A stretch of 50,807 bases of DNA from Deltaproteobacteria bacterium (GTDB lineage Bacteria > JACQOV01), in NCBI GenBank assembly GCA_016202395.1, contig JACQOV010000009.1:1-50807 (forward strand). Direction: 5' to 3'. Below are positions 23,200 through 44,443 of the stretch, piece after piece. The translations under genes were made by a program, and so were the position numbers. The notes under the pieces are model-generated. The model ran no database searches, was not told where the DNA came from, and saw only the letters and a program-made list of their open reading frames with translations. Position 1 is the first letter of the stretch. Each line of letters begins with the position of its first letter.

Positions 23200-23451
23200 A
23201 TGGCTTCTCTACAACAAGCTAATTTTCTTATGCCCGAAGACGTACTCCAAGAATTACGGCGAACGGTTCCCAAAGGAGAACAAAGTAAGGTGGTGGTTCA
23301 CGCTTTGAGACAAGAGTTGACGCGCCTGCGATTTCTAAAAAGCTTAGAAAAACATTTTGGCGCTTGGGCGAAAAGAAAACATCCTGAACTGAAACATGGC
23401 GTTGAAAACTACATCCGTCATCTAAGACACTCCATCCGAGGAGATCGTTAG
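23200..23451 (+). CDS. VapB-like RHH antitoxin
   Basis: NFLMPEDVLQELRRTVPKGEQSKVV...FGAW; abuts the PIN gene. Confidence 0.8.
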   Translation: MASLQQANFLMPEDVLQELRRTVPKGEQSKVVVHALRQELTRLRFLKSLEKHFGAWAKRKHPELKHGVENYIRHLRHSIRGDR

Positions 23452-23820
23452 ATGCCCACCGTTGTCATAGACAGCGATATTTTGATCCATTTTTTAAGAG
23501 GGGACCCGAAGGTTAAAGATTTTCTTGAGCGAATTGCCTCGCAATCGGTTCCGTGCTGCTCCGCTATTACTGTTGCGGAGATCCATGCCGGCATGCGATC
23601 CAGCGAAAAAGAGGGAACAAAAGAGTTGTTAGACAGTCTTGTGATCCTTCCCGTAACACGAGAAATCGCTGAATTGGCCGGAAACTTGAAACAGAGCGTT
23701 CGTCACATGAAATTAGCTCTAGATGATTGTTTAATTGCGGCCACCGCTCTGATCGAGGAAGTTCCCTTAGCCACAGGAAATCGCCGACATTACCCTTTCG
23801 CGAAATTGGTGCTATTGTGA
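23452..23820 (+). CDS. VapC PIN-domain toxin
   Basis: VIDSDILI, SAITVAEIHAG, DCLIAATA, TGNRRHYP. Confidence 0.92.
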   Translation: MPTVVIDSDILIHFLRGDPKVKDFLERIASQSVPCCSAITVAEIHAGMRSSEKEGTKELLDSLVILPVTREIAELAGNLKQSVRHMKLALDDCLIAATALIEEVPLATGNRRHYPFAKLVLL

Positions 23821-23839: not shown

Positions 23840-26500
23840 TCAGACTTTAGAAACAGGAAATCGGAGGGTAAAAGAGGTGCCCACGCCAATCTCACTCTGC
23901 ACCTCGATCTTCCCATGGTGCCGCTCGATCACTTGATGGCTAATGGCCAGCCCAAGCCCCGTGCCTTGACCCAGCTCTTTTGTGGTAAAAAAGGGACTAA
24001 AGATCTCGGATAAGCTCTCTTGGGGAATTCCACACCCATTGTCTCCAATGACCACCCACACCTCTTCTCCTTGTTCCTTCGTTTCAACCTCGATCCGACC
24101 CCGATACCCCACATGGCCTTGGCCTCGTTCCCTTTCCCCTCGCTCTTCTAGGGTATGAATTGCGTTCACTAAAAGATTCATCAGCGCCTGATTGAGCTCT
24201 GAGGCCTTCCCAAGGATCGAAGCGACTGAATCGAAACGAGTCACCACCTCCCATCGCCGCAGCTGCGCCTTCAACACCCCCATCGTGAGTTCTAAACAGG
24301 CATTCACATCGATCGGCTCTTGCTCCCCTTTCGATGGATACACAAACCGCTTCATCTGCTCAATCACTTCCACCGCTTGCCAACAGGCCTGATTCTGCTC
24401 CTTTAAAATCTCGACCATTTCGGTGAGCCGCTCCATCCCCTGGGGATCTCCATTCCATTTTTTCTGAAGCTCCTCCACCCAATCCCGCATCGTCCCCAGA
24501 TTCATAATCACCGTGTTCAAAGGGTTGTACACCTCATGGGTGATTCCCGAAAGGAGGATGCCCAAGGTGCCCATCTTCTCGGCCTGGATGAGCATGCGGG
24601 TTCCCTCTTCTACCTTTCCCTCGAGTTTCTGCGCATACTCCTGCAACTGACCCTTAGCCTCCAGGAGCTCCCGCTGAAGAGATCGGTCATGAATAAGATT
24701 CTTCACACGGGCCTTAAGCTCTTTAGGACTAAACGGCTTAATCAAGTAATCATCGGCTCCGAGGTCCAGCCCCTCCATTTTATTGCTCAATTCTACTTTT
24801 GCTGTCACCATGATAATCGGGATCTGCTTTGTTCGATCCTCCGCTTTAAGACGACGCGTTACCTCATAGCCGTCCACCTCTGGAATCATAATGTCCAAGA
24901 CAATCAGGTCTGGCATCTGCGACTTCACCTTCTCAAGCCCCTCCATGCCATCTCTGGCTTCAATGATGTGGTAGTCCTCCCGGAGTTGATCCCTGATGAA
25001 CCGACGCATATCATCGCTATCCTCCACCACTAAGATTTCGGCCATGCCTTTTAATTTTTCTTTGGCCGACCTTTCTTTCGCTTGGATCTCCTCCATAGAT
25101 TCCGTTGTCACAGCATCGCTCTTTTCAGCTTCAGCGGACAATCGGTGCAACCACTCCTTCCGGTCAGAATCGGCGGACGCACTCGGGATCTCTTCAATTC
25201 CAGATCGAATCGGTAAGGTGAATTCGGCTATGGTTCCTTTGCCTTCCTCGCTCTCGATCGAAATCTTCCCCCCATGCATCTCAACCAACTCCTTAGCAAG
25301 GGCTAACCCGATACCCGTTCCCCCATACTTCCGTGTTGTCGAAGGATCGACCTGTGAAAAACGGTCAAAAACCTTATCGATTCGATCTTTGGGAATCCCA
25401 ATGCCTGTGTCCTCCACCCTCACCCACACCCCTCCCTTTTCCTCCATAAATCCACAACCCACACGAATTTCTCCCCCCTCCGGTGTAAACTTGATCGCGT
25501 TCATCACGATATTCAAAACAACCTTCTCAATTTTTTCCTCATCGAACGGTATTTCGGGAATCTCCCCCTCCGCACGAAATTGGATCCCTAACTGCTTTTT
25601 CTCCGCCAAGTGGCCCACCCCATCCACAAGACCCCGCAAGAATGGAACAAGGTCGCCCCGCCTCACCTTCAACTCTGTTTTTCCCGCATCGTAACGAGCC
25701 AGTTCTAACAGATTGTTGATGAGCCTGAGCAACCGGAGACCGTTGCTGCGCATAACCTGCACCTCTGCCTTTTGTTTTTCTGTGAATTGCCACTCTTTGG
25801 AAGAAAGCATCGTTTCGAGAGGAGCGAGTATTAACGTCAAGGGGGTCCTCAACTCATGCGACACATTCGCAAAGAGTTGAGATTTGAGAACGTCGAGCGC
25901 CTTCAATTTCTCATTGGCCTGAGCCAGTCGATACCTTCCGCCGAACTCTCTGAAACGAAGTTGATAACCTGTGTATGTTGAGGCTAGAGCAATGACGATC
26001 GTTGATAAGAGAAAGAAATTATTATTGACAAATAAAGCTCGATCCTGAATCCCATAAATAATCAATGAAGGGATCAAATAAGAAACATAAATAAGTGAAC
26101 AAGTAATAGCAGAATACTTTAGCCGCCAAGGCATCAATAAAGCCAATGCCAATATGTAAAGATTCAAACCAGCGTAGTAGGGGCTCTCTCCTCCGCCAGT
26201 AATTTGAACCATCACCGATATGGTTCCCGCACCGACCAAAAATCCTGAAATTGCAATCAAGTTAATATATCGTCGCCCAAATTCTCTATAGATAACAATT
26301 AAATGGCCTATCAAAGCTAAGGTACACCCTATCCTTAATGCGATAAGGGACCCGATACGCTCAGGAAAAATAAAATAGTCCACTATCCCAAAAGTCGGAA
26401 CCAAAATGATACCCAGCTTGGCGGCTATGCGACCCTTTTCAACGGTAAGGTCGCTGACCTCGCAGTCAAACTCTTGTTGGAAGGTGTCGTCTGGGATACA
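23840..26500 (-). CDS. Hybrid sensor kinase: membrane sensor-HisKA-HATPase-REC-HisKA-HATPase; start codon unresolved
   Basis: SHELRTPL, DTGIGI, GGTGIGL; REC motifs VVEDS, LDIMIPEVDG, KPF; THEVYNPL, DNGCGI, GTGLGL. Homology to the upstream kinase extends about 32 codons 5' of the TTG at 26404. Confidence 0.88.
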   Translation of the reverse strand, partial: CIPDDTFQQEFDCEVSDLTVEKGRIAAKLGIILVPTFGIVDYFIFPERIGSLIALRIGCTLALIGHLIVIYREFGRRYINLIAISGFLVGAGTISVMVQITGGGESPYYAGLNLYILALALLMPWRLKYSAITCSLIYVSYLIPSLIIYGIQDRALFVNNNFFLLSTIVIALASTYTGYQLRFREFGGRYRLAQANEKLKALDVLKSQLFANVSHELRTPLTLILAPLETMLSSKEWQFTEKQKAEVQVMRSNGLRLLRLINNLLELARYDAGKTELKVRRGDLVPFLRGLVDGVGHLAEKKQLGIQFRAEGEIPEIPFDEEKIEKVVLNIVMNAIKFTPEGGEIRVGCGFMEEKGGVWVRVEDTGIGIPKDRIDKVFDRFSQVDPSTTRKYGGTGIGLALAKELVEMHGGKISIESEEGKGTIAEFTLPIRSGIEEIPSASADSDRKEWLHRLSAEAEKSDAVTTESMEEIQAKERSAKEKLKGMAEILVVEDSDDMRRFIRDQLREDYHIIEARDGMEGLEKVKSQMPDLIVLDIMIPEVDGYEVTRRLKAEDRTKQIPIIMVTAKVELSNKMEGLDLGADDYLIKPFSPKELKARVKNLIHDRSLQRELLEAKGQLQEYAQKLEGKVEEGTRMLIQAEKMGTLGILLSGITHEVYNPLNTVIMNLGTMRDWVEELQKKWNGDPQGMERLTEMVEILKEQNQACWQAVEVIEQMKRFVYPSKGEQEPIDVNACLELTMGVLKAQLRRWEVVTRFDSVASILGKASELNQALMNLLVNAIHTLEERGERERGQGHVGYRGRIEVETKEQGEEVWVVIGDNGCGIPQESLSEIFSPFFTTKELGQGTGLGLAISHQVIERHHGKIEVQSEIGVGTSFTLRFPVSKV

Positions 26501-26521
26501 TCGATCCCTGGTGCAATCTGC

Positions 26522-27958
26522 TTATTTATAGCGTGAAGAAGCCGGTTGGGCAATCGGAAGCTCAATCACAAACTTCGCTCCTTTTCCAACCTCACTGATA
26601 ACCTGAATCTTCCCTCCGTGAGCTTGGATGATGCGATAAGAAACAGATAGACCGAGCCCCATTCCTTTTCCAACCGTCTTGGTTGTAAAAAAAGGGTCAA
26701 AAATTTTCTCTTGAATCTCCCGAGGGATGCCCGCTCCGGTATCTTGAACCGATATTTGGACGCGCTCCCCTTTTCTCTCCGTCTTGATCCAAACATCCCC
26801 AGATCCGGCAATGGCTTGGATGGCATTATGGAGAACGTTCATAAAAACCTGATTGATCTGCCCGGGCAGACACTCGACTTCCGGAATATCGCCATACTCC
26901 TTATGAATATGAATCTGCTCCCCCAATTCATGGGAAAGAAGCTTGAGTGTGGAGTCGAGCCCCTCATGAAGATTGGCAAATATAAAATCTCCCCGGTCTT
27001 TTTGCGCAAACGTCCGAAGGTTTGCAACAATCTCTTTAGTGCGAGTGAGCCCATCCTTGAGCGTGCTTATGGCCTCTGTCAGACTCATCCACAATTCGTG
27101 AAGGCTCCCCGATTTTTTGCTTTCCTCCAACTGTTTCAAGAACGCTTGGGTCTGTTCTTCATCCATCGAATTCACGCTCATGAACGAGCTAAGCAGGTCT
27201 TTCATCCGCCCCACCTGATTGCGAAGATTGTCCAAAGTGAGAAAAGAATAGGCAACCGGATTATTAATCTCATGAGCCACACCTGCGACCAGTTGCCCCA
27301 AGGCAGCCATCTTTTCGGCATGGACGAGCTCCGCCTGCGCTTGGATGAGCTGCCGATTGGCCTCCTCTAGATCCTCTTTTGCTTTCTCTAGCTGATGCCG
27401 CGCCATAAACTCCTGATACCGAAGTCGATAACCGACATAGGTTGCTATGAGCGCGATGGTAATTGTCGACAAGAGGAAAAAGTTATTATTAATAAATAAT
27501 GCTGAATCTTGGATTCCATAGAAAACCAACGAGGGCAAGAGGTAAGAGAGGTAGATCAACCCGCAAGCAAGGACAGAATATCCTAGGGGCCATGGAGCTA
27601 ACAAAGCCAAAGTAAGTATAATTAAGTTCAAACCTGCATAGTAAAAACTTTCACCACCTCCAGTAATAAAAACCATTATAGAAATAGATACACCGGTGGT
27701 CAGAAATCCAAAAACACCAACGATATTGAGATGCCGTCGTCCCCAGAGACTGTTAATGGCATACCAAAAGCCAATCAATGCTACACTGCACAGTGCCCTT
27801 ACCATGAAAATCAATGCAAAACGATGAGGAAATACAAAATAGTCAAGTATCCCAAAAGTTGGAAACAAAATGATCCCTACCATCGTTGCCACCCGAAAAT
27901 TTTTCCATGTGACCGTGGTTAATTCTGCCTCAAATTGCTTCCGAAGATCATTTTTCAT
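26522..27958 (-). CDS. Membrane sensor histidine kinase (PhcS-like input domain, NtrB-type kinase core)
   Basis: Five to six TM helices with LDYFVFP, WGRR, TGGGESFYYAGLNL; AHEINNP, NAIQA, DTGAGI, GMGLGL. Confidence 0.9.
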   Translation of the reverse strand: MKNDLRKQFEAELTTVTWKNFRVATMVGIILFPTFGILDYFVFPHRFALIFMVRALCSVALIGFWYAINSLWGRRHLNIVGVFGFLTTGVSISIMVFITGGGESFYYAGLNLIILTLALLAPWPLGYSVLACGLIYLSYLLPSLVFYGIQDSALFINNNFFLLSTITIALIATYVGYRLRYQEFMARHQLEKAKEDLEEANRQLIQAQAELVHAEKMAALGQLVAGVAHEINNPVAYSFLTLDNLRNQVGRMKDLLSSFMSVNSMDEEQTQAFLKQLEESKKSGSLHELWMSLTEAISTLKDGLTRTKEIVANLRTFAQKDRGDFIFANLHEGLDSTLKLLSHELGEQIHIHKEYGDIPEVECLPGQINQVFMNVLHNAIQAIAGSGDVWIKTERKGERVQISVQDTGAGIPREIQEKIFDPFFTTKTVGKGMGLGLSVSYRIIQAHGGKIQVISEVGKGAKFVIELPIAQPASSRYK

Positions 27959-27963
27959 ATCTG

Positions 27964-30831
27964 CTACTTCTTACCAACCACAATGTACGCTTGAGAAGGA
28001 TTTCCACAGGATTCGATAACAGAAATGTCCCTAAAACCAACTCTCAATAACATATTCACCAGCTCCTCCTTCCTATAAAACCTAAAAACACCCTTATCTT
28101 CATAGTTAAAAACCGACGAAGTATTATTAATATAACTTTTTGCCTCGTCAAGTAGTTCTTCCTTTGTTAGATCAGATGGAATCTCTTCCTCAGATAAGTT
28201 TTTAATTTTTTCTAATGTTTCGATCACGTTAGGTGATAGATCTGCATCGGGCTTTAAAGTTGAAATAATTACCTGACCACCCGTCCTCAAAAGCTTATAA
28301 AACTGGGACAAAACTCCTTCCGGCTTTTTCAAATAAGAAACAACAAGGCTTGCAATGAGGGTGCTGAAGTGCCTTTTCTCAAAATGCTTTAAAAGGCCTC
28401 CATTAGCTTCTAAATCTATGTTGTAATAAGCTAATGGGTAACCTACTAGCCCGTGCTTTTCTAGAAGAGTCCGATGCTTTTTCTCAGCTTTTGTTAAAGC
28501 CTGTTCCACAAAATCAACGGAAATAATCGCTGGAGCATCTGGTAACTCCGGAACCCTATTATTTTGAATCCAATCAGACAACATCACCTGGACTAAGTTG
28601 CCAGTGCCACAACCAATATCTCCTATAACACCTCTCACCCTAGGCAATACAAGCCGAGTTTGATCCAAAAGAAACTCTGGATATTCTTTCGAAAACATCA
28701 GCACATCAAACCCAACCTTCCCATTCTTGCCACCTAAGAGATGACGGGTCCAATAACGCTTGTAATCCATTTTGACGTTTCTTCTAACGCGAGCCATTTC
28801 CACCTCATGGATCTTGATTGCCTGAGCCACTCCTAAAGGAAGGGGATTAACTTCTTTCCGATAAAGATGCTTCCAAATTTGTTTTACAATGAGCGAAAAA
28901 ACCGACAAAGCTTCGTCACTCGTTTTAACAAGATGCCCTGTAGGAACTTCAACAAGCTCATTCTCTGGATTGGGACTCACCGACATCAGGTGTCGAACTC
29001 GATTAGAATTGACCCAGTAATCATACTTTCCACAAATCCAAGTAATGGGAGTGAAAATTCTTTTCATGTCTTCCACAGCATCTTCTAAAAAGATTGTCCT
29101 CGATCGGACAGCATCAGGTCCAAAATGGTTTTCAGAGATGCTGTAACCTAAAATCAACACATCACCAAACCTTTTTCCTTTTGCATAATCACCCAGGTAA
29201 TCAATACCACCTGTCACATTCTGAATAAGATCTTGAGCGTCGGAAGCGCCCATGGGGGCGATCCAATACTTAATGCGCTCCCCTTCCTCCAAAATCACTT
29301 TCCTGGCTGGCACTGAGGTGAGGCTGAATGAGACTAAAACAATACCGTCACAGCCAAACGTGTCGTTGTCTTCAACAAACCGGATGGTCGTTAACAAATC
29401 GTCCACCATCTGTGATAATTCAAAATGATATAATTCTTTTCCTTCTTCGTTACATTCTAAATCCCTATAGCTCTCCCCGAGTTGATTGATGCCGTCATAG
29501 CGTATCACAACAGCCTCTTTCCCTAGTCTTTTAAAATTTTGTATGATTGTATGAGCTAAAGCAAAAGTTGTTTCTTTTCTTCTGGCATATGCAGGTGGAA
29601 TGATGACAATCAAGGCGTGGCGTTTTTCTTTTCCGGCCCAGGTTTTGTTTAAAATTCCGACGATCTCTTGGCCCTTTTCGTTTTTGTAGCGGACAATCTC
29701 AATGGGAACCGATGATCTGCCGAGAGCCGTTAGTAGTTTTCGATACCCGAAATAAATCCCCAAGAACGCTTTGTTGAAAAGGCTTAAGAATTTAGAGAAG
29801 AAACCCTCCTCAAGTTTCGTAAAGGTCTCTCGATAAAATCGATAACTCCCATGCCGCTTTTCAATCTCAATACCCACTCGGATTCGATTCTTCGCATCCC
29901 CTTCCTCCCAAGGAACCCTGGATTTAACAATCCCCCTCCCCTCTAACAAAGTTCCCGCATCGGTCAATAATTCACAACTTTGAATTTCCTCCGAAACCTC
30001 GAAAGGGAAATCGTTCTGCTCCACCACGATTGAAAAACCGGATTCGCTCCAACCTTCAACAGGAACATTCCAAACTTTACCACCCTGCAGAGTCAGCCGA
30101 GCTTCAATCTCTTCCGCCCCTTCTTCTCTAGGCTCTCTCCGCCGATCCACATAAATCAGATCGGGGCAGGAAACGACGGGACCGAGGTCCCCATCGAGAT
30201 CTTGAATAAACGATTCAAAAAAGTGGTTGATCCCTTTTAACTCAAAAGAAAGGTAGATCGCTTGATAGAGCTTCAAACGAGGAGTGACACCGGGAGTTAA
30301 AAACCGAAGGTAAATCCTCCCTCCTTCGAGCCGATCGATGACCCCTTCAAAAAAATTCCGCGTTCCACCCGCAACACCGCCAACAACACCGGTGACAGGA
30401 ACCCTTGCATCTTTGGACTGCTTTAGAATCGAGTGGATCACGGAGTCGCCGCGAACAGGCTTTAGATTCTTTCCAGGTGGAAAATCAAATTCTTTCTGAA
30501 AGCCTTGAAGGGTATCAGTAAGGAGATAATGCAAGGCAAAGTTCCGCAGAAACTTTCGATCCTTTTCAGAGATATGAACAAATTCGGCTTCGATGCGAAC
30601 GAATCGAGAGTCCTGGATCGGTTGTTGCGACAAAACGTGGATTTCGGCTTTAACAGGTTTGCTTCGATAGGGAAGTTCAATCCGAACAGGGAGTGTCTGA
30701 TGAAGGGGAACGTCTCCCGCAACCTCCGCGTAAAAGCCCCCCGGGCTAATCTCAACCACGCTCCCTTCACCGATCGACTTGGATTGGAGTCGGAAATAAC
30801 AGCGCTTCCAGGGAAGTTTTTCCTTCTCCAT
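27964..30831 (-). CDS. PilZ + YcgR-like PilZN/PilZ + LuxD-like acyl thioesterase/transferase + class I SAM methyltransferase fusion
   Basis: EISPGG; RRREPR...WSESG; AYARR, VIRYDG..LGES, SFSLT, YDYWV, TGHLV; IGDIGCGTGN, LLRTGG. Confidence 0.8.
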   Translation of the reverse strand: MEKEKLPWKRCYFRLQSKSIGEGSVVEISPGGFYAEVAGDVPLHQTLPVRIELPYRSKPVKAEIHVLSQQPIQDSRFVRIEAEFVHISEKDRKFLRNFALHYLLTDTLQGFQKEFDFPPGKNLKPVRGDSVIHSILKQSKDARVPVTGVVGGVAGGTRNFFEGVIDRLEGGRIYLRFLTPGVTPRLKLYQAIYLSFELKGINHFFESFIQDLDGDLGPVVSCPDLIYVDRRREPREEGAEEIEARLTLQGGKVWNVPVEGWSESGFSIVVEQNDFPFEVSEEIQSCELLTDAGTLLEGRGIVKSRVPWEEGDAKNRIRVGIEIEKRHGSYRFYRETFTKLEEGFFSKFLSLFNKAFLGIYFGYRKLLTALGRSSVPIEIVRYKNEKGQEIVGILNKTWAGKEKRHALIVIIPPAYARRKETTFALAHTIIQNFKRLGKEAVVIRYDGINQLGESYRDLECNEEGKELYHFELSQMVDDLLTTIRFVEDNDTFGCDGIVLVSFSLTSVPARKVILEEGERIKYWIAPMGASDAQDLIQNVTGGIDYLGDYAKGKRFGDVLILGYSISENHFGPDAVRSRTIFLEDAVEDMKRIFTPITWICGKYDYWVNSNRVRHLMSVSPNPENELVEVPTGHLVKTSDEALSVFSLIVKQIWKHLYRKEVNPLPLGVAQAIKIHEVEMARVRRNVKMDYKRYWTRHLLGGKNGKVGFDVLMFSKEYPEFLLDQTRLVLPRVRGVIGDIGCGTGNLVQVMLSDWIQNNRVPELPDAPAIISVDFVEQALTKAEKKHRTLLEKHGLVGYPLAYYNIDLEANGGLLKHFEKRHFSTLIASLVVSYLKKPEGVLSQFYKLLRTGGQVIISTLKPDADLSPNVIETLEKIKNLSEEEIPSDLTKEELLDEAKSYINNTSSVFNYEDKGVFRFYRKEELVNMLLRVGFRDISVIESCGNPSQAYIVVGKK

Positions 30832-30841
30832 CAGCTTCCTT

Positions 30842-31606
30842 TCAATCGATCCCGCTCAATAGCTCCCGCGCCCGCCCTCGGTAATACTCTTCTTCACAAT
30901 CTGGAACGTTGGGATCCGAAGGGATCGTGAAGATAAACTCAAGCTGCTCCCGCGCTTTCCCCTTCTCCCCCTTCTTTAAATAACTCTCCGCCATCAAGAA
31001 TCGTGTTGCTGCCCGATACGGTGAAAAATCGTATTGAAGCCCCTGTTGATAGTACTCCAATGATTTGTCGATGTTTCGCAGCGGCCAAGGCAGCTCATAA
31101 TAGTAGCGCCCCAACGAAACTACCGCATAACCATCGTCAATAGACGGATCGATCTCAACGGCTTTGGTAATCCCACGGTAATACTCTCGGTCTAAGCCCT
31201 GCAACACCGCCTTGACCACACCAATTCCACGAATATACATCCCCACGCTTACCGTCCGGTACAAATGTCCCTCCACACGGTTGGGCTCCAACTCCACCGC
31301 CCGCGTTCCATAAACCTTGTATCCTTCCTCCCCATATTTTTTTTGCTTCTCTCGATCGTCGGAGAGATAGCCGATGTAAAATAACGAACGGGCGATTTTC
31401 CAGTGAGCTTCGTAATGGTTGGGATCGATTTTGAGGACATTCTTGTACTCTTCGATCGACCGATGGAACTCGTCTTCACAGGTTAGAAAAGAACGATCTC
31501 CGCGATCCAAGATCTCTTGAAGGGAATCCTGCGCAGAAAGGGGATAAACCGCCACAACCGATAGGGCTACAATGTTGGGAAGAATACGCTGAAAAATCCA
31601 AGACAT
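30842..31606 (-). CDS. Exported TPR-like helical-repeat protein
   Basis: Signal peptide; repeats ending DPNHYEA, LEPNRVEG, IDPSIDDG; LGRYYYELPWP. Confidence 0.8.
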   Translation of the reverse strand: MSWIFQRILPNIVALSVVAVYPLSAQDSLQEILDRGDRSFLTCEDEFHRSIEEYKNVLKIDPNHYEAHWKIARSLFYIGYLSDDREKQKKYGEEGYKVYGTRAVELEPNRVEGHLYRTVSVGMYIRGIGVVKAVLQGLDREYYRGITKAVEIDPSIDDGYAVVSLGRYYYELPWPLRNIDKSLEYYQQGLQYDFSPYRAATRFLMAESYLKKGEKGKAREQLEFIFTIPSDPNVPDCEEEYYRGRARELLSGID

Positions 31607-31663
31607 GCTGGCTCTTAATATACACTATCCGACACCGCTGGGCAAACCTGAAGACAAAGCAAT

Positions 31664-31746
31664 CGGAGGGCGAGGGACTCGAACCCCCAAGGGCTTGCGC
31701 CCGCCTGATTTCAAGTCAGGTGCCTTACCAATTAGACTAGCCCTCC
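31664..31746 (-). tRNA. tRNA-Ser(UGA), CCA not encoded
   Basis: Acceptor GGAGGGC/GCCCTCC with discriminator G; anticodon arm CCTGA-CTTGAAA-TCAGG; variable arm GGGC-GCAA-GCCC; T-loop GGTTCGAGTCC. Confidence 0.95.
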
Positions 31747-31808
31747 TGAGTTTTCAATTTTACTCTACTTGTGGTTCGATGTCGAGATCAGGTATCCTAT
31801 TCCCTCAA

Positions 31809-32816
31809 ATGAAACGTCGCCACGGTCAGACGATCACGTGGATCCTTTTTCTCGTTGGGGCCTCTCTCTTTGCCCTCCTGCTTTATTGGGCGGGTCCCAA
31901 AAATCTTGCTGCCCATCTCAAGGCGGCAGGCCCCTATCTCTTTCTCGTCGTCCTTTTCTATGGTCTGGCTCAGATGTCGTACACACAAGCCTGGCGGGTT
32001 CTGCTCGGTGAATATCGGCACAAGATCCCTTTCTGGAAACTCTTCGGCGTTTATCTCGCTGGCGACTCCATCAATTACCTCATCCCTTCCGGAAACCTTG
32101 CGGGGGAACCCATCAAAGCGCAACTTCTTCGACACGATCTGGGAGTCCTTCGAGGGCTCACCTCCGTCACGATCAACAAACTCTCCGAAACGGTCTCGAT
32201 GGTGATCTTTCTCCTCGTGGGAGTGAGCTGGGCCCTCTGGAATCTCTCTTTCCCCACCGCACTCCGATGGGCAACACTGTTTGTGCTTACAGGAACAACC
32301 GTGGCGATCGCCCTCTTTTTCTGGCGTCAGAGGAAGGGAATCTTCGACCCCGTTTTTCGCTTTCTGGCAAAGCTGGGTGTCAAAGGCCCTCGATTTGAAA
32401 GTTGGCATCAAGCAGCCAAAGAGCTCGACGTCCAGATCTCCGCCTTCCACACGATGGGGGGCCGAGGCATGGGAACCTCCCTCTTTTTCAATCTCCTCGG
32501 TTGGTTCGGAGGCGTGTTAGAGGCCTATTGGCTACTTCGTCTCCTTGATCTTCCGGCAAGTCTCTCTACGGCTTTTATTTTTGAGAGCTTGGCCCTTATC
32601 GTTCAAAATGCCACCTTTTTTATTCCGGGCCGCCTCGGCGGGAGCGATGGCGGACGCGTCCTTATCTTTACCCTTTTAGGCTTTGCCGCCACAAAAGGGT
32701 TTTCTTTCAGCGTGATGCGCAGGTGCCGCGAGCTTTTCTGGGTGGCCGTTGGGCTCCTATTCCTTTTACGCCTCCGCCCTAAAACCTCTACTCCTACAGC
32801 TTCCAACACACCTTGA
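31809..32816 (+). CDS. Lysylphosphatidylglycerol-synthase TM / flippase-like membrane protein
   Basis: AGDSINYLIPSGNLAGEPIKA, FFIPGRLGGSDGG, RRCRELFW. The ORF-track extension to 31605 crosses the tRNA and is spurious. Confidence 0.85.
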   Translation: MKRRHGQTITWILFLVGASLFALLLYWAGPKNLAAHLKAAGPYLFLVVLFYGLAQMSYTQAWRVLLGEYRHKIPFWKLFGVYLAGDSINYLIPSGNLAGEPIKAQLLRHDLGVLRGLTSVTINKLSETVSMVIFLLVGVSWALWNLSFPTALRWATLFVLTGTTVAIALFFWRQRKGIFDPVFRFLAKLGVKGPRFESWHQAAKELDVQISAFHTMGGRGMGTSLFFNLLGWFGGVLEAYWLLRLLDLPASLSTAFIFESLALIVQNATFFIPGRLGGSDGGRVLIFTLLGFAATKGFSFSVMRRCRELFWVAVGLLFLLRLRPKTSTPTASNTP

Positions 32817-33517
32817 TGAATACCTCTAACATTCAATGCCTGCTTCTCGATTACGGCGGAACCCTAGACTCCGATGGAGAAACATGGCTGCGCCGTTTCT
32901 TTCGTCTCTATCAAGAAGAAGGTTTCGATATCCCGCTGGAGAAATTTGAAAAGGCTTTTTACGCCTCGGATGACGCTCTCAACAAAAGCCAAAAGATCCA
33001 AAACGCCGGCCTTCTTGAAACCCTCAAACTACAGGTTCATGGAGTTTTTAAAAACCTGAAGATTCGGGAAAGAAAGCGACGGCAAAGGATCATCGAAAAT
33101 TTCTTCATCGACTCGGTTCGACAAATACAGCGAAATCTCCCGCTCTTAAAGAGATTGGCCTCCCGTTATCGGCTCGGAATCATCTCGAATTTCTATGGAA
33201 ATCTTGAAACCATTCTTGAGGAACAAGGGCTAAAACCTCTTTTGGATCTCTGGTTAGATTCGACACAAGCGGGGCTTATGAAACCGGAGCCTGCCTTTTT
33301 CCAAAAAGCGATCGACCATTGGAGAGGTAAACCCTCTCAAATCCTCATGGTGGGAGATTCCCCTAACCGCGATATGCAAGGGGCTAAAGGGGTCGGAATG
33401 CCCCATGTGTGGCTTTGCAACGCGGACAATCTCAAGAAAGATCCCTGCTGCTCCGGAGACCCCAAGATCTCTTCGTTCTTAGACCTTGAAAATCTTCTTC
33501 TCACGGAGGGGTCATGA
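32816..33517 (+). CDS. HAD-family hydrolase/phosphatase
   Basis: LLDYGGTLDSDG, ISNFYGN, KPEP, MVGDSPNRD. Confidence 0.88.
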   Translation: MNTSNIQCLLLDYGGTLDSDGETWLRRFFRLYQEEGFDIPLEKFEKAFYASDDALNKSQKIQNAGLLETLKLQVHGVFKNLKIRERKRRQRIIENFFIDSVRQIQRNLPLLKRLASRYRLGIISNFYGNLETILEEQGLKPLLDLWLDSTQAGLMKPEPAFFQKAIDHWRGKPSQILMVGDSPNRDMQGAKGVGMPHVWLCNADNLKKDPCCSGDPKISSFLDLENLLLTEGS

Positions 33518-34248
33518 AGGCGGGGATTATCGCCGCTGGAGAAGGGAGACGCTTTCGAGAACAGGGTTGGTCCATGCTAAAACCTCTCGTTCCGATCCAT
33601 GGAACCCCCTTGATCGAGATCGCTTTTAGAGCGATGGAATCGGCCGGAATCGAGGAGATCTTTTGCCTGTTTCGCACCCAAGGCCAACCGATCGTGGATC
33701 ACCTCAAGAAATGTCCATTTAAACTTCGCTGGTCTTATCAGCTCAAAGACACCGCCTCCTCTTATGAAACCTTTTATCATGTGGTTCGAGGGCTTGGGAG
33801 TGGCCCCTACTTGATCTCTACCGTCGATCTTGTATATGATTCTGCCGAATTAAAGGCCTTTTTGGCAAGGGCCAGCCACTTCCCCAAAGGCTCTTTGGTT
33901 CTTGGGGTAACCTCTTTTGTTCATGATGAAAAACCCCTTTGGGTCGCTTTGGGTCCAGATCAAAAGGTCTTAAAGCTTGGGGATCAGGCCGTGCCAACTC
34001 CGTGGGTGACGGCAGGTCTTTACTTCGGATCGGAGAAGGCCTTTGCCCCGTTGGTAGATGGAGGGCCCCACCGATTCTCCGCTCTTCGGGAAGGATTAAG
34101 CATGTTGGTAACCCAAGGGGTTCCGACCTATACGGTCTCTTTGTCAACCGTGATCGATATCGATACCCCGGAGGACGTCGAGATTGCGAAGAAGATTTTC
34201 GCCCCTCACCCTAACCCTCTCCCCAAAGGGGAGAGGGAACAAGGGTGA
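33514..34248 (+). CDS. NTP transferase (sugar/cyclitol-phosphate nucleotidyltransferase)
   Basis: IIAAGEGRRF...KPLV, STVD, DEKPLWV, DIDTPED. Confidence 0.88.
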   Translation: MKAGIIAAGEGRRFREQGWSMLKPLVPIHGTPLIEIAFRAMESAGIEEIFCLFRTQGQPIVDHLKKCPFKLRWSYQLKDTASSYETFYHVVRGLGSGPYLISTVDLVYDSAELKAFLARASHFPKGSLVLGVTSFVHDEKPLWVALGPDQKVLKLGDQAVPTPWVTAGLYFGSEKAFAPLVDGGPHRFSALREGLSMLVTQGVPTYTVSLSTVIDIDTPEDVEIAKKIFAPHPNPLPKGEREQG

Positions 34249-34252
34249 GGGG
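34202..34252. repeat. C/G-tract nested palindrome forming the 3' end of the NTP transferase gene
   Basis: Outer CCCCTCACCCT/AGGGTGAGGGG, inner CCCTCTCCCC-AAA-GGGGAGAGGG; encodes PHPNPLPKGEREQG*. Confidence 0.85.
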
Positions 34253-34264
34253 AACGAGCTTATT

Positions 34265-35176
34265 ATGAAACTCTTAGGAATTCATCGAGAAACTCTCTAC
34301 TCTCCAGAACGGGAGAATGATGATACGGCGATCCTGCGCCTGACGGCGGAGGCCCTTCAAACCCAAGGATTCGATGTTCAAACGAAGGGGATCGAAGAAG
34401 TTCGCGCAAGCGACCTCCATCAACCGATCTTCGGAATGTGCGAAGGCCCCCAAGGGATCGAATTTCTAAAGAAAGCCGAAGCGGGAGGGTATCGAGTCAT
34501 CAATGGATCGCAAGCCGCTTTAAATTGTCATCGCTGGCGGATGTGGCCTCTCTTACAAAAAGCGGCAGCCCCTCTCCCTTCAACAGTGATTGTTTTGATC
34601 CATGGAGCAACACCCCCCAGGCTGTTCAAAAAGCTCCAGATGCAAGGCGCCCAACCGAGGCCGAGTGAGGCGTACTTGGTTAGTACGCCGCAACGAGTGC
34701 CGAGGGAGGGCAACGAAGCAGATGGACTTTTTCAACAGCCTGACAAACGGCTCTGGATTAAACGGGGAGACGTCCACAACACCCAAGAAGGGGGAGATGT
34801 TGTCTATGTGGATACCGATGAAGGGATCGAACGAACGCTACAAAATATGGCAAGCCGAGGGATCGAAAAGGTCTTGATCCAAGAGCATGTGGACGGAGAC
34901 CTCATCAAATTCTATGGGATCATTGGAAGTGATTGGTTCAAGTGGTTCTATCACAAAGGGGTGAGCCGCGGAATCCCGTTTGACGAGAGTGAGCTCCGCT
35001 CTGTCGTCGATCGAGCCGCCAAGGCGATGGGATTGGAGATCTTCGGAGGGGATGTGATTGCGGCCCCCGATCGGATGGTTTTGATCGATATTAATAGCTG
35101 GCCGAGTTTTGCCCTGTGTCGCGATGAGGCATCCCAGCAAATTGCAGATTACCTAAAAAGGAGGTTTTCAGAGTGA
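34265..35176 (+). CDS. ATP-grasp fold protein with in-frame MITE insertion
   Basis: VING, WIKRGD, IQEHVDGDLIKFYG, GLEIFGGD, IDINSWPSF. Confidence 0.82.
   Translation: MKLLGIHRETLYSPERENDDTAILRLTAEALQTQGFDVQTKGIEEVRASDLHQPIFGMCEGPQGIEFLKKAEAGGYRVINGSQAALNCHRWRMWPLLQKAAAPLPSTVIVLIHGATPPRLFKKLQMQGAQPRPSEAYLVSTPQRVPREGNEADGLFQQPDKRLWIKRGDVHNTQEGGDVVYVDTDEGIERTLQNMASRGIEKVLIQEHVDGDLIKFYGIIGSDWFKWFYHKGVSRGIPFDESELRSVVDRAAKAMGLEIFGGDVIAAPDRMVLIDINSWPSFALCRDEASQQIADYLKRRFSE
34618..34742. mobile_element. 125-bp MITE with 16-bp terminal inverted repeats
   Basis: CAGGCTGTTCAAAAAG / CTTTTTCAACAGCCTG (15/16 match); internal hairpin GGCGTACT-TGGTT-AGTACGCC. Confidence 0.82.
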
Positions 35177-36495
35177 GTCCAGATCGACCGAAATCAAAAA
35201 AGCTGTTTCAGGAGGAGCAAGAGGTCCTCGCTCCAGGAATCCAAAGCATCGCGCTCTATTCGCAACTGGTGCTCGATCATGGGAAAGGGGCTCAAGTTTT
35301 TGATGTCGATGACAATCGCTACATCGATTTCATCGCCGGCGTATCGGTGGGGAGTTTAGGGCATTGCCATCCACGCTATGCCAAAGCGCTTCAGCAACAG
35401 CTCGAAAAGATCACCTTTGGAAGTTTCGCCACCGCGAATCGAATCCAATTTCTAAAACTTCTCTCTTCGCTGCTCCCTGGAAAGCTCAGAAAAACTCAGC
35501 TTTACAGCGGTGGAGCCGAAGCGGTGGAGTCTGCCCTTCGTCTGGCTAAATCGCACACAAAAAAATACGAGGTGGTGGCCTTCTGGGGGGGATTCCACGG
35601 CAAAACCGGAGGGGTTTTATCACTCCTAGGGGACAGTTTCAAATTTAAATTGGGACCGTTGGCCTCAGGAACCTATCTCACCCCTTACGCCCATTGCTAT
35701 CGTTGCCCTTTCAAGATGACATTCCCCTCTTGCAACTTTCATTGCGTGGATCACATCCGGAAAAAGATTCGGCATGAGACGACCGGGGAGATTTCCGCGA
35801 TTATTGTAGAACCGATCCAAGGGACCGCGGGAAACGTCGTCCCTCCTCCAGGGTATCTCAAAGCGCTCCAAGAAGTCGCCCAAGAGAACGGCGCCCTTCT
35901 CATCGCCGATGAGATGATTACCGGCTTTGGTCGAACCGGGAAGATGTTTGGATTTCAACACGATGGAATCGTTCCCGACATCGTGACCATTGGAAAAGGG
36001 ATGGGATCCGGTTTCCCGGTGAGTGGCTTGATTTCAACCGATGAAATTATGGCTTCGAAGCCTTTCTCGAATCCCAGTTACAGCTCCTCGAGCTATGGTG
36101 GAAACCCTCTGGCCTCTGCGGCGGCTTACGTGACCCTTCAAACCATTTTGGATGAAAAGCTGATTGAGAATTCTGAAAAGCTTGGCGCGTGGATGTTAGA
36201 GGAGTTGAAAGGCTGGAAAGACCGATTCTCTTTTATCGGCGATGTGCGCGGGCGCGGACTTTTGATCGGTGTGGAACTGGTTCGGGACAAACAAACCCAA
36301 GAACCTCTCTCCAGCAAAGCGGGCCGCTTCCTTTTTGAGCAGGCCTTAGAGCGAGGGCTCTTGATGATGGTTTCTGCCTCTACGGTGCGAATCAATCCTC
36401 CCTTGGTTCTGGACAAAGCGACAGCGCAGGAAGGCTTGAAAATTATGAAAGAGGTCTTCGAGCTTTTTGAAAAAACAGAGGGTTTCAAAAATTGA
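35173..36495 (+). CDS. Class III PLP aminotransferase
   Basis: SGGAEAVE, FHGKT, EPIQG, DEMITGFGRTG, GKG, SYGGNP. Confidence 0.93.
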   Translation: MSPDRPKSKKLFQEEQEVLAPGIQSIALYSQLVLDHGKGAQVFDVDDNRYIDFIAGVSVGSLGHCHPRYAKALQQQLEKITFGSFATANRIQFLKLLSSLLPGKLRKTQLYSGGAEAVESALRLAKSHTKKYEVVAFWGGFHGKTGGVLSLLGDSFKFKLGPLASGTYLTPYAHCYRCPFKMTFPSCNFHCVDHIRKKIRHETTGEISAIIVEPIQGTAGNVVPPPGYLKALQEVAQENGALLIADEMITGFGRTGKMFGFQHDGIVPDIVTIGKGMGSGFPVSGLISTDEIMASKPFSNPSYSSSSYGGNPLASAAAYVTLQTILDEKLIENSEKLGAWMLEELKGWKDRFSFIGDVRGRGLLIGVELVRDKQTQEPLSSKAGRFLFEQALERGLLMMVSASTVRINPPLVLDKATAQEGLKIMKEVFELFEKTEGFKN

Positions 36496-37484
36496 ATCCG
36501 GCCCTACGAGGAGGGATCATCGGCTTTGGACGAAACGCGATGAAGGCTCATCTCCCGGCGTTTCAAGCCCTCTCTCAATTTGAAATCCAAGCGGTCTGTG
36601 ACCCTCGGGAGGAAGCGCTTCAGACAGCTCCCACTCTCCTTAAAGGAGTTAGAACTTACCGAAATCCAGAGGAACTCCTTGAGAGCGAGGCTCTCGATTT
36701 TGTGGTGATCGCCACCCCCCCCTCGCTTCATGCTCCCCTTAGTTTAGCAGCGCTCCGTCGAAAAATATCGGTCCTCTGTGAAAAGCCTCTCACCTCCCAT
36801 TCGAAGGAATTAGAGCTTCTAGAAAAAACGGCTCAAGAGAATCACGTGACTCTCTTTACGGTTCACAACTGGAAATACGCCCCGATCCTTCAAGAACTTT
36901 CAAAAATTCTTCACTCTCAAGAGATCGGATCCTTAAAAAGGACCGAGATTGAGATTTTGCGAACTCGACCCGCCGCGGGGGAAGGGAATTGGCGAGGGGA
37001 CGCCTCTGTGGGAGGGGGCGGAATCGTGATGGATCATGGTTGGCATTGGTTCTATTTGATCCCGTCTCTAGTGGGAGAAGATTTTAAAACCGTTTCGGCG
37101 AAACTGGCTCTCAATGAAGCCAAGATTGAAGAGGTTGCCGCCTGTCGTTTTGACAAAGCCGATGGGACTGGAGTTTATCTCCACCTTTCTTGGAGGGCGG
37201 AGCGACGTTACAACGGCGGCCTCTTTGAAGGGACCCAGGGGACTGTCCATCTGAAAGACGATCGATTGGAAAGAGAACAAAAAGTGATCCCTTTTCCAGA
37301 ACGACTTTCGGCAGGCTCCTACCATCCCGAATGGATTCGAGCGATGCTCTTGGATTTTGAGAAAGAGGTGCGGAATCCTATAAAGCGAGGAGAAAACCTC
37401 CGAGAGGCTAAACGCTGTCTGCAATGGTGCCAGGCGGTCTATCGATCCCACCAACTCGGTGGAGAAAAAGTGAATTTGATATGA
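36492..37484 (+). CDS. Gfo/Idh/MocA oxidoreductase (inositol-dehydrogenase-like)
   Basis: GIIGFG, ATPPSLH, LCEKP, GGGIVMDHGWH. Confidence 0.92.
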   Translation: MNPALRGGIIGFGRNAMKAHLPAFQALSQFEIQAVCDPREEALQTAPTLLKGVRTYRNPEELLESEALDFVVIATPPSLHAPLSLAALRRKISVLCEKPLTSHSKELELLEKTAQENHVTLFTVHNWKYAPILQELSKILHSQEIGSLKRTEIEILRTRPAAGEGNWRGDASVGGGGIVMDHGWHWFYLIPSLVGEDFKTVSAKLALNEAKIEEVAACRFDKADGTGVYLHLSWRAERRYNGGLFEGTQGTVHLKDDRLEREQKVIPFPERLSAGSYHPEWIRAMLLDFEKEVRNPIKRGENLREAKRCLQWCQAVYRSHQLGGEKVNLI

Positions 37485-38476
37485 ATTGGACAGCGTGTAT
37501 CCCTTTACCGACAGATCCAAAAGAGCGAGAGCTTTTAATCCAGCCGCTTCTGGGGCTCCCTTTCATCGAGCGCTTGATTCGGACTCTGCGTAAGGAAGGA
37601 ACCACGGTTGTTGTTGCGTTCGATAAAGAACCCCATGAGGAGATGTCAAAGATCAAAGCGATCGTAGAAAAAGCGGGCGGGACATTGGAATCGAGGGAAA
37701 GTCTAGAGGGCCGTCTTCAGAGAGAAGAGATCCGGACCGTCTCTCCTCTGGAGCGGTTTCCAATGAAAACGGATCCGGACCGCAAGGAAACCGAAAAAAA
37801 ACTGCTCCGTTCCCTGATTAAACCGACCGAAGGCTTTATGTCGAAACATTTCGAACGAAAAATCTCTTTGGCCATCACCCGTCGAATCATCTCTACCTCG
37901 ATAACGCCAAACCAAATGAGTCTTATCTCGATTGGCATTGGATTGATTGGGGGGTTGGGCTTTGCTTCCACAGAGCGAGTTTGGCATATCGTAGGATCGT
38001 TGCTCTTTCTTGTTCATTCGATCACCGATGGCTGTGATGGAGAGATCGCGCGATTGAAGTTCCAACACTCGAAACTCGGAGCCTGGCTCGATTTTTGGGG
38101 GGACAATGCGGTGCATGCCATGGTCTTCTCCTGCATGGCAATTGGGCTTTATCGAGGAGGGATGTCTCTGTGGATCTTGACTATTGGAGGACTGGCGGTT
38201 GCGGGAACTCTGTTATCGGCCTCCCTCATTTTCACCCAAACGATACTCCCTCAAGGAGCTTTCACAAAGGCTACGGGAGACCGTCAAACAGAGGACAAGA
38301 AGGCTAAAGCCTTTTCCAAAATTGCCGATTCTTTGGGAAACCGTGACTTTATTTACCTGGTGATTTTTTTAGCCATGCTAGGGAAACTCCATTGGTTTCT
38401 TCCCCTCGTTGCGGTAGGATCCCCTTTATACGGCATAATGTTGATTTACATCTACCTAAAATCAAGGAGGAAGTAA
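37481..38476 (+). CDS. CDP-alcohol phosphotransferase with degenerate N-terminal NT-like segment
   Basis: ITPNQMS; DGCDGEIAR...SKLGAWLDFWGD signature; N-terminal LLGLPFIERLI. Confidence 0.9.
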   Translation: MNWTACIPLPTDPKERELLIQPLLGLPFIERLIRTLRKEGTTVVVAFDKEPHEEMSKIKAIVEKAGGTLESRESLEGRLQREEIRTVSPLERFPMKTDPDRKETEKKLLRSLIKPTEGFMSKHFERKISLAITRRIISTSITPNQMSLISIGIGLIGGLGFASTERVWHIVGSLLFLVHSITDGCDGEIARLKFQHSKLGAWLDFWGDNAVHAMVFSCMAIGLYRGGMSLWILTIGGLAVAGTLLSASLIFTQTILPQGAFTKATGDRQTEDKKAKAFSKIADSLGNRDFIYLVIFLAMLGKLHWFLPLVAVGSPLYGIMLIYIYLKSRRK

Positions 38477-39792: not shown

Positions 39793-39840
39793 CCCCCTCT
39801 ATCTCCCCCTTAATTTAAGGGGGAGAAAAAGAGGGGGTTA
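39790..39840. terminator. Nested palindrome between convergent ino1 and mlaC-like genes (repeat-derived, possible bidirectional terminator)
   Basis: Outer TAACCCCCTCT/AGAGGGGGTTA, inner TCTCCCCCTTAA-T-TTAAGGGGGAGA. Confidence 0.7.
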
Positions 39841-40455: not shown

Positions 40456-40526
40456 TTTATCTCCTAACGCTATGCATCATCTTAGCAAAATTTCACCCGA
40501 TTTGCAATGTTTTAACGCGTCATGAT

Positions 40527-41000: not shown

Positions 41001-41075
41001 GAGTGTCTCCTCCTCGCTGCGATCAAAATTGCCTTGGTTCTTTTCTCCCCCTGAATACAAACTCAACCTCTTCAT

Positions 41076-41510: not shown

Positions 41511-41536
41511 AAATCACCTCGTTCATCCTGTTAGGG

Positions 41537-41567
41537 AGTATAACATTATACCTAAGTATAGAGTCAA
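41537..41567 (-). promoter_or_regulatory. MerR-type promoter with 19-bp spacer and dyad operator
   Basis: TTGACT-CTATACTTAGGTATAATGT(19)-TATACT; dyad TATAC-TTAG-GTATA in the spacer. Confidence 0.85.
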
Positions 41568-41587
41568 GTGGTGTTTTAACACAGGTT

Positions 41588-44441: not shown

Positions 44442-44443
44442 AT

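Follow-up and report, generated by a model that had tools for sequence, protein, structure and literature searches.

In the Rpf system of Xanthomonas, which is named together with the diffusible signal factor (DSF), the synthase RpfF and a fatty-acid-type signal are joined by the hybrid membrane kinase RpfC and by RpfG, in which a receiver (REC) domain is fused to an HD-GYP domain, that is, a cyclic di-GMP (c-di-GMP) phosphodiesterase. DSF, RpfG and c-di-GMP appear side by side in the accessible part of PMC9758175. The Phc system of Ralstonia, as excerpts of PMC7694676 and PMC6989110 present it, comprises the methyltransferase PhcB, the kinase PhcS and PhcR, which carries a REC and a kinase-like domain. 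Here we describe a four-gene operon, P0001 to P0004, that recalls both systems. It lies on a stretch of 50,807 nucleotides (contig JACQOV010000009.1 of assembly GCA_016202395.1, positions 1 to 50,807; the whole stretch is referred to as the window) from an uncultured groundwater member of the Deltaproteobacteria, the assembly of which amounts to 1.9 Mb and is 89% complete. The operon encodes a fusion of PilZ domains, a LuxD-like hydrolase and an S-adenosylmethionine (SAM)-dependent methyltransferase, followed by two membrane histidine kinases.

Domain identities, conserved residues, gene linkage, kinase outputs and the fold of the sensor are the observations on which we tentatively favour, with less than even confidence, one reading of this operon: it would be the derived copy of a two-part module, widespread and as yet uncharacterised, in which a lipid-product synthase is coupled in a closed loop to a membrane lipid sensor. 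The genes, which lie head to tail on the minus strand, are as follows.

30842-31606, minus strand: P0001, 254 residues, predicted exported tetratricopeptide repeat (TPR) protein
27964-30831, minus strand: P0002, 955 residues, fusion of PilZ, LuxD-like hydrolase and SAM-methyltransferase
26522-27958, minus strand: P0003, 478 residues, membrane sensor kinase
23840-26404, minus strand: P0004, 854 residues counted from a TTG codon, hybrid kinase with a second kinase core

The fusion enzyme and the two membrane kinases

An earlier note on this DNA had given the order of the four genes together with gaps of 10 and 5 nt, and the coordinates of the open reading frames (ORFs) agree with it: 10 nt (30832-30841) separate P0001 from P0002 and 5 nt (27959-27963) separate P0002 from P0003. 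At the third junction 117 nt precede the listed TTG of P0004, but homology of the input domain runs through them. The domains of P0002 were delimited as follows.

30487-30831, minus strand: N-terminal PilZ domain, residues 1-115 (Pfam PilZ over residues 17-98), with degenerate c-di-GMP motifs
29827-30474, minus strand: PilZN-like barrel and second PilZ domain, residues 120-335 (profile match to PP4397, 2gjg, E 0.03; beta-barrels in the model)
29722-29811, minus strand: aromatic and basic linker helix, residues 341-370 (helix at 342-369, pLDDT 52-57; hydrophobic moment about 1.0)
28852-29709, minus strand: LuxD-like alpha/beta hydrolase, residues 375-660, predicted to be of the acyl-acyl carrier protein (ACP) thioesterase/acyltransferase type; S503, D604 and H633
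27967-28764, minus strand: class I SAM-dependent methyltransferase, residues 690-955, with DIGCGTG at 738-744

A word-indexed search retrieved 87 proteins of the same build as P0002, with 29-42% identity and all from uncultured bacteria. None of the 87 has a functional name, and the source annotations of some relatives read "pimeloyl-ACP methyl ester carboxylesterase". Conservation was counted on an 82-sequence alignment of this family. A literature search found no published account of a PilZ/LuxD-like fusion among the matches listed, and the PilZ survey 10.1101/814665 is silent on it in its accessible portion.

The hydrolase domain matched Acyl_transf_2 (PF02273) at about residues 400-617 (E 4.7e-5) with 23.2 bits against a cut-off of 20.3 when searched alone, and with 20.3 bits against the same cut-off when the whole of P0002 was used. 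LuxD (1THT) was the top PDB match of the P0002 profile (E 6.2e-8) and the sole strong match of a profile of the hydrolase part (E 1.5e-8); a profile is needed, as single-sequence phmmer with the domain gave no match in PDB. In the profile alignment, which stops before the histidine, the family's invariant serine (S503) is aligned to residue 114 of the 1THT chain and its invariant aspartate (D604) to residue 211. The catalytic triad of LuxD consists of Ser114, Asp211 and His241. In P0002 relatives, S503 (within SFS), D604 and H633 (within PTGH) are each kept in 82 of 82 sequences. The AlphaFold model of P0002 (pLDDT 88.4, pTM 0.73) had 1THT as its best Foldseek match (E 2e-14, TMt 0.81); esterases and monoacylglycerol lipases came next. 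By profile, predicted fold and aligned residues, the hydrolase is LuxD-like, of the putative acyl-ACP thioesterase/acyltransferase type.

The C-terminal part of P0002 matched Methyltransf_23 (E 2.7e-9, about residues 731-937) as well as Methyltransf_31, Methyltransf_12 and Methyltransf_11, and the glycines of its SAM motif (G740, G742 and G744) are invariant (82/82). Its profile matches are generic (UbiE, MitM, phosphatidylethanolamine N-methyltransferase). The earlier note's description of the fusion as PilZ, LuxD-like and methyltransferase parts is thus upheld by profile, fold and invariant residues, and an enzyme of the P0002 type probably frees a fatty-acyl compound and methylates it. In NCBIfam the methyltransferase matches BioC best (E 2.1e-6), which, with the carboxylesterase annotations of some relatives, recalls a masking scheme of the BioC/BioH type: the methyltransferase would cap the carboxyl group of an ACP-bound acid, the hydrolase would later remove the ester, and the kinases would be mere regulators. 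This is very improbable, since the BioC score reaches 27.7 bits against a cut-off of 184.95, the hydrolase resembles LuxD and not BioH, biotin genes were not seen in the operon, and both PilZ gating and a dedicated membrane kinase would be left unexplained.

The PilZ region (residues 1-340) matched Pfam PilZ with an E-value of 5.5e-10 and, by profile, the PilZ structures 5vx6, 2gjg and 4xrn. The family overall keeps the canonical RxxxR and DxSxxG motifs, from which P0002 departs. In the PilZ domain at the N-terminus, residue 8 is arginine in 62 of 66 relatives; P0002 has E4 and W8 in place of both arginines, and E27 where the family has N or D. In the second PilZ domain, R232 (82/82) and R236 (81/82) are nearly universal, and P0002 reads R230-R231-R232-E-P-R235, in which RRxxxR is kept but shifted by one residue; at residue 260, the D of DxSxxG in 61 of the 82 sequences, its glycine is unique. 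Since the source genome has 7 GGDEF, 3 HD-GYP and 4 PilZ matches, c-di-GMP is in use there. The linker helix that joins the PilZ and catalytic parts, modelled with low confidence, may bind the membrane.

The two kinases consist of the following parts.

27389-27958, minus strand: P0003 six-helix MASE8-like input domain, residues 1-190 (MASE8 profile and AlphaFold model)
26525-27346, minus strand: P0003 kinase core of the NtrB/AtoS type, residues 205-478 (H-box VAHEINNP; HATPase_c E 5.6e-28)
25931-26521, minus strand: P0004 input domain, paralogue of that of P0003, including the 117 nt upstream of the TTG at 26404
25205-25912, minus strand: P0004 first kinase core, residues 174-400 (HisKA, VSHELRTP, E 1.1e-21, and HATPase_c)
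24701-25036, minus strand: P0004 REC domain, residues 457-568 (Response_reg E 3.7e-29)
23843-24607, minus strand: P0004 second kinase core, about residues 600-854 (H-box ITHEVYNP, HATPase)

The core of P0003, HisKA-like followed by HATPase, has NCBIfam matches to T2SS_HK and AtoS-type kinases. The second core of P0004 is of the same type (BLASTP segment E 6e-34) and occupies the place that HD-GYP holds in 42 relatives, so that a second kinase in which a REC domain precedes a kinase core, as the earlier note had it, is indeed present. Close paralogy of the input domains was also confirmed: they are 55% identical, and each of the motifs PTFGI(L/V)DYF.FP, GRR, ITGGGES.YYAGLNL and ALF.NNNFFLLSTI is found in both proteins.

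Residues 38-191 of P0003 align with nearly the whole of the MASE8 model (PF20968, positions 2-154 of 154) at E 0.011, scoring 16.3 bits against a cut-off of 26.2; P0004, with 17.9 bits, is likewise under it. A paralogue on contig C24, which matches the input-domain hidden Markov model (HMM) at E 1e-37, exceeds the cut-off with 32-35 bits, and 17 of 37 aligned input domains match MASE8 at E <= 0.1. Precomputed annotation lists PF20968.4 for P0003 and most of 111 relatives, and in the ESM Atlas a MASE8 cluster is among the nearest to the input domain. On these sequence matches the input domain is a divergent MASE8 subfamily. A literature search on MASE8 found its naming reference alone and no known ligand.

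The AlphaFold model of the P0003 input domain (pLDDT 95.5) is a six-helix bundle. VIA gave Z scores of 17.1 to ImcA of P. aeruginosa, 16.0 to bovine adenylyl cyclase 9 (AC9) and 15.7 to human AC5, the next row being at 10.7 and Rv1625c at 9.7; the superpositions on ImcA, AC9 and AC5 have root-mean-square deviations of 2.7-3.0 over 187-194 residues with identities of 11-18%. Foldseek also matched ImcA (E 2e-3, TMq 0.69-0.71), the six-transmembrane (6TM) domain of which is described in PMC10904736, as far as the available text goes. According to the accessible portions of the respective papers, the membrane domains of mammalian cyclases are receptors to which fatty acids and anandamide bind (PMC11606603), C18:1 fatty acids inhibit Rv1625c only as long as it has its membrane domain (PMC12505454), and replacing the Rv1625c anchor by the 6TM quorum receptor CqsS places the cyclase under regulation by CAI-1 (PMC4821796). 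Because the modelled domain superposes on anchors of the ImcA/AC9/AC5 type, it has the fold of known lipid receptors, a resemblance that falls short of proving a lipid ligand. The likeness of the input domains to PhcS that the earlier note put forward is to be treated as a lead; the domain itself is a divergent MASE8. Its membrane part has invariant polar residues, D39, R54 and Y106, and an NN.FF motif, which are candidates for a binding site.

Recurrence of the enzyme and kinase pair and readings of its function

One genome per species was scanned. Of the 233 matches to the pattern, 201 code for a relative, and the best 80 of these 201 matching genomes were taken with 10-kb flanks. Using an HMM of the input domain, we found a kinase with the same input domain downstream and on the same strand in 60 of the 80 loci, which are not independent (25 rows represent one Aminicenantes clade). 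The kinase gene usually abuts or overlaps the fusion gene, often by 3-7 nt. Its recurrence in 60 of 80 related loci, drawn from several phyla, indicates that the adjacency exceeds chance, and it answers positively the survey of gene linkage that the earlier note had proposed. Eight of the 20 loci lacking such a kinase have no downstream DNA as the contig ends there; six others have 341-3151 bp downstream, and in five of them the sequence breaks off within the acyl-ligase gene that stands before the kinase gene in loci of the spirochaete type. The window locus alone has two such kinases.

Kinase outputs were tallied over 63 ORF rows, which include both rows of the window and a locus divided into two, by Pfam on representatives and by seed searches.

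42 rows: input domain, histidine kinase, REC, HD-GYP
6 rows: input domain, histidine kinase, REC, second kinase core (L018, L042, L044, L065, L072 and window P0004)
15 rows: shorter kinase ORFs, most of them cut by contig ends

HDxGK and G[YF]P are intact in every one of the 42 HD-GYP domains. In an unrooted FastTree of the catalytic region (75 of 81 rows, six having been dropped as too incomplete), partners with HD-GYP occur in all three major clades, and at least three changes are required to account for the second-kinase type. The branch of the window copy is long and lies close to one Nitrospirae locus and two from Desulfobacterales; because the tree is unrooted, we regard this copy as only presumably derived. 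c-di-GMP gating, which the earlier note had proposed for the enzyme, is well supported for the family by the 42 HD-GYP partners and the retained RxxxR and DxSxxG motifs, but it is doubtful for P0002 since the PilZ motifs are degenerate and the window's kinases lack HD-GYP. The idea that PilZ motifs decay only where HD-GYP has been lost was rejected: L018, L042, L044 and L065, the four second-kinase loci outside the window in which the PilZ region is readable, keep RxxxR.

In loci of the spirochaete type, genes for an acyl ligase, seen in 19 loci, and for a B12 radical-SAM enzyme, seen in 15, lie between those for the enzyme and the kinase, and an ACP (PP-binding) was found in two of three such loci tested. 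In the Nitrospirota loci L018 (8401-9903) and L011 (8376-9866), an acyl-CoA dehydrogenase gene lies directly upstream of the fusion gene; the first 110 or so residues of these dehydrogenases resemble the second PilZ domain of the fusion, yet Pfam PilZ gave no match to the N-terminus of the L018 protein at E <= 0.001. L011 also has a FadL-type channel, and an HAE3/MMPL exporter is inserted in two loci. A further contig of the source genome, C103 (43143-51440, locus L086), encodes a 923-residue MASE8-like kinase with the histidine kinase-REC-histidine kinase arrangement, adjoined by genes for a fatty-acyl-AMP ligase, an acyl-CoA/ACP dehydrogenase, an ACP and, truncated where the contig ends, a PilZ-aldehyde dehydrogenase; this locus may specify a PilZ-gated fatty-aldehyde pathway. 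With the ligase, ACP, radical-SAM, dehydrogenase, exporter and C103 genes nearby, the gene neighbourhoods point to carrier-bound fatty-acyl chemistry under c-di-GMP control beside this type of sensor.

The same neighbours bear on two further explanations. Next to a membrane sensor, a methyltransferase co-occurs with a Ser-His-Asp hydrolase, as might be the case in a CheR/CheB-like cycle of methylation and demethylation of the kinase itself, an analogy that we find barely credible: domain scans returned no CheR or CheB family match, the hydrolase is LuxD-like, and the ACP, ligase and radical-SAM genes of relatives point to acyl chemistry. The second, which we consider unlikely, is cell-autonomous homeostasis of membrane lipids, in which the enzyme would deacylate and/or methylate a membrane lipid at the bilayer and the six-helix domains would sense the state of the bilayer and feed back, no intercellular signal being involved. 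The aromatic and basic linker helix between the PilZ and catalytic parts, the fold matches to monoacylglycerol lipases and other lipases, the profile match to phosphatidylethanolamine N-methyltransferase and the richness of the window in lipid genes (an inositol-lipid-type cluster, MlaC and an HpnN/BstA-like transporter) are all in keeping with it. Against this, LuxD, an acyl-ACP thioesterase, is the best match by sequence and by fold, and the private ACP, ligase and radical-SAM enzyme of relatives point to carrier-bound substrates and not to bulk membrane lipid.

In the closed loop that we favour, the LuxD-like domain (Ser503/Asp604/His633) would take an acyl chain off a carrier protein. The carrier would be general acyl-ACP in the source genome and, in spirochaete relatives, a private ACP that the adjacent ligase would load and the B12 radical-SAM enzyme would alter. 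The fused SAM methyltransferase would then methylate the released acid into a neutral hydrophobic product, for example an acyl methyl ester, which would enter the membrane, where the neighbouring kinase or kinases would read it through their six-helix MASE8-like domain. The kinase would, in most lineages, phosphorylate its own receiver and so switch the HD-GYP c-di-GMP phosphodiesterase, and the PilZ domains of the enzyme would read that c-di-GMP, closing the loop. In the window, a second kinase core would have replaced HD-GYP, a short paralogous kinase would have been added and the PilZ motifs would have decayed; output probably goes to an unlinked response regulator, for which the type of the kinase core suggests the NtrC type. 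The substrate, the product, the part of the product as ligand and a role between cells are what we infer here, and "quorum sensing", the methyl-ester product and the "cognate" kinases of the earlier note are to be taken in the same sense.

Several observations weigh against this reading. Many of the 80 loci are close kin. Six loci (L001-L004, L009 and L020) have 7.7-10 kb of downstream DNA and no such kinase, which indicates that the enzyme can work without a dedicated sensor; L001-L004 and L009 are full-length loci in a group labelled Acidobacteria/Acidimicrobia, and L020 is labelled Polyangia. Kinases that have no linkage to such enzymes (C24) carry MASE8-like domains as well, and these are also found with other outputs, so the domain is a general sensor. 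The matches of the methyltransferase, being generic, do not indicate methylation of a carboxyl group. In the window itself, domain scans found no HD-GYP in P0003 or P0004, the hybrid kinase P0004 has no canonical start, the N-terminal PilZ domain lacks both arginines and the second has G260 for D. Finally, the architecture of the family is equally well explained without feedback, as a sensor acting through a phosphodiesterase on a PilZ-enzyme.

This last explanation, an open-loop c-di-GMP and two-component module, is doubtful in its own right and nearly as likely as the closed loop. The MASE8-like kinase would sense an unrelated membrane or environmental cue and set the enzyme through HD-GYP and PilZ, or through transcription in the window, and the product would be an end product (a lipid, a wax-like ester or a metabolite) and not a ligand. 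An arrangement of sensor, histidine kinase, REC and HD-GYP together with a PilZ-enzyme makes sense without feedback, and MASE8, which occurs together with GGDEF, PAS and other outputs, is promiscuous as a sensor. The six loci without a kinase fit this explanation, as do the other PilZ-tagged lipid enzymes beside such kinases, namely the dehydrogenases of L018 and L011 and the aldehyde dehydrogenase of C103. However, the window and five relatives keep the adjacency where HD-GYP is gone, so that c-di-GMP wiring alone does not explain the linkage; the exporter or FadL genes within some clusters suggest that a product crosses the envelope; and the fold of the sensor is that of membrane domains known to be lipid receptors.

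A further-reaching version of the closed loop, which we hold to be unlikely, is an unrecognised family of lipid autoinducer systems across at least six phylum labels, most of the bacteria being uncultured, with c-di-GMP-gated synthesis and HD-GYP feedback, rewired in the window to a phosphorelay with a duplicated receptor; this would make MASE8 the first domain of the MASE type for which a lipid ligand is defined. If the closed-loop reading holds, a new type of synthase and a new receptor domain would stand beside DSF, Phc and CAI-1/LAI-1 lipid signalling, lipid signalling would extend to phyla where none is known, a single second messenger would both gate production of the signal and be the output of its reception in one compact circuit, and MASE8 would have a testable candidate ligand. 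Even as an open loop, PilZ-tagged lipid enzymes with dedicated HD-GYP kinases would represent an unstudied form of local c-di-GMP control of lipid metabolism.

Features particular to the window

The conserved N-terminal helix of P0004 is encoded in the 117 nt upstream of the listed TTG (26404). Its frame is open back to the TAA stop of P0003, so that the two genes share a common frame, and it contains no in-frame ATG, GTG or TTG (window 26405-26524). The +1 frame has an ATG (26502-26500) with AGGGA ahead of it, but meets a stop after 11 codons. Contigs of three runs from one study, which may include the source of the window, show no differences in this stretch, and an assembly indel is thus unsupported. 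Possible explanations are a rare start codon, read-through, a +1 slip at CCC-AGA and a genuine frameshift followed by re-initiation. Near-identical contigs were found in four groundwater metagenome runs, all from one study. Among 40 other genomes compared, of which none is nearer to the source genome than "same domain", none has a match to P0002.

The N-terminus of P0001 reads as a signal-peptide-like segment followed by TPR repeats (TPR_11, E 1.1e-6). A match to the sterol-binding protein BstC (NCBIfam E 2.7e-6 and 27 bits, the cut-off being 350; E 0.09 to PDB 7t1s, BstC) is a weak likeness, to be treated as a lead. The earlier note had listed the TPR gene as the first of the operon; phmmer with P0001 detected no homologue in the 80 related loci. 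In some spirochaete loci, other, unrelated TPR or unidentified small genes precede the fusion gene. By its distribution P0001 is a putative lineage-specific accessory outside the conserved module.

31664-31746, minus strand: tRNA-Ser(UGA) (Rfam tRNA, 57.3 bits; ARAGORN anticodon tga)

This tRNA gene sits 57 nt upstream of P0001 and may share a transcript with the operon. A plus-strand ORF at 31605-32816 (HpnL-like/LPG_synthase_TM) overlaps it, so its true start must be later than listed. An RNA family scan of the window found the tRNA alone and no riboswitch or other RNA, and promoter and terminator scans gave no excess over shuffled sequences.

Divergent from the operon, a lipid head-group cluster on the plus strand (31800-39792) encodes an HpnL-like membrane protein, an HAD hydrolase, an NTP transferase, an unidentified protein of 330 residues, a class-III aminotransferase, a GFO/IDH/MocA oxidoreductase, a CDP-alcohol phosphatidyltransferase and myo-inositol-1-phosphate synthase, a gene content that suggests an (amino)inositol phospholipid pathway. 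At the spirochaete locus L033 an inositol monophosphatase gene precedes the fusion gene. Genes for envelope lipid transport follow at 39838-48001, with MlaC (39838-40455), DUF3187 (41588-42592), an outer-membrane efflux protein (43068-44441) and an HpnN/BstA-like transporter of the resistance-nodulation-division type (45257-48001), which scores 601 bits to TIGR03480. The window also holds a single-domain PilZ protein (49250-49567, minus strand) and a stand-alone HD-GYP protein (515-1531, plus strand). Toxin-antitoxin-like genes were seen at 3767-4674 (a nucleotidyltransferase/HEPN pair), at 23200-23820 immediately downstream of the operon (an 83-residue ORF and a PIN domain) and at 44729-45061 (a Gp49/HigB-like gene).

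Elsewhere, the fusion genes of L001-L004 and L009 have intact PilZ motifs, and no MASE8 kinase is present in their fetched flanks; in L001, L004 and L009 the fusion gene is preceded by a gene for an XPD-type helicase and followed by one for a hexapeptide transferase.

Comparison with known systems

LuxD of Vibrio harveyi (1THT), a myristoyl-ACP thioesterase/acyltransferase, is the best profile and fold match of P0002 residues 375-660 or so, with its serine and aspartate aligned. In contrast to LuxD, to which identity is about 15-16%, the domain is fused here to PilZ and methyltransferase parts, and no luxC, luxE or luciferase genes are present. The input domain shares a common hexahelical fold with the anchors of class III adenylyl cyclases and with ImcA (Z 15.7-17.1). 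Such anchors are reported as fatty-acid receptors, and CqsS functionally replaced that of Rv1625c, in the accessible parts of PMC11606603 and PMC12505454 and of PMC4821796, respectively. The output here is a histidine kinase, however, identity is 11-18%, and Rv1625c itself reaches a Z of only 9.7.

With Phc, the module shares a SAM methyltransferase that adjoins a membrane kinase in one operon and would yield an acyl methyl ester, and, in architecture only, the order of P0004, in which a receiver precedes a kinase-type domain as it does in PhcR in the excerpt available from PMC7694676. It differs by its additional LuxD-like hydrolase and PilZ domains and, in most relatives, by an output to c-di-GMP. 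Among 111 input-domain and 61 methyltransferase profile matches, the latter mostly fragments of the P0002 family, none is named Phc or comes from Ralstonia, a weak negative since the search needs shared five-residue words and most matches are unnamed.

With Rpf/DSF, the family shares a fatty-acid-type signal, as proposed here, a polytopic hybrid membrane kinase and a REC-HD-GYP unit that lowers c-di-GMP, kinase and REC-HD-GYP being fused into one protein in 42 relatives; JGI names several of the partner kinases "RpfG family c-di-GMP phosphodiesterase/histidine kinase". Unlike RpfF, none of P0001-P0004 belongs to the crotonase/enoyl-CoA hydratase family in domain scans, the enzyme being a thioesterase-methyltransferase fusion with PilZ domains; moreover, the sensor is MASE8-like with six helices, and the window kinases P0003 and P0004 are devoid of HD-GYP. 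From the canonical relatives, the window copy is set apart by its histidine kinase-REC-histidine kinase protein in place of one with HD-GYP, its second, short kinase, its degenerate PilZ motifs and its TPR gene. The logic of the circuit is thus closest to Rpf/DSF, and its proposed chemistry and the REC-kinase architecture of P0004 resemble Phc, the module being assignable to neither system on these features.

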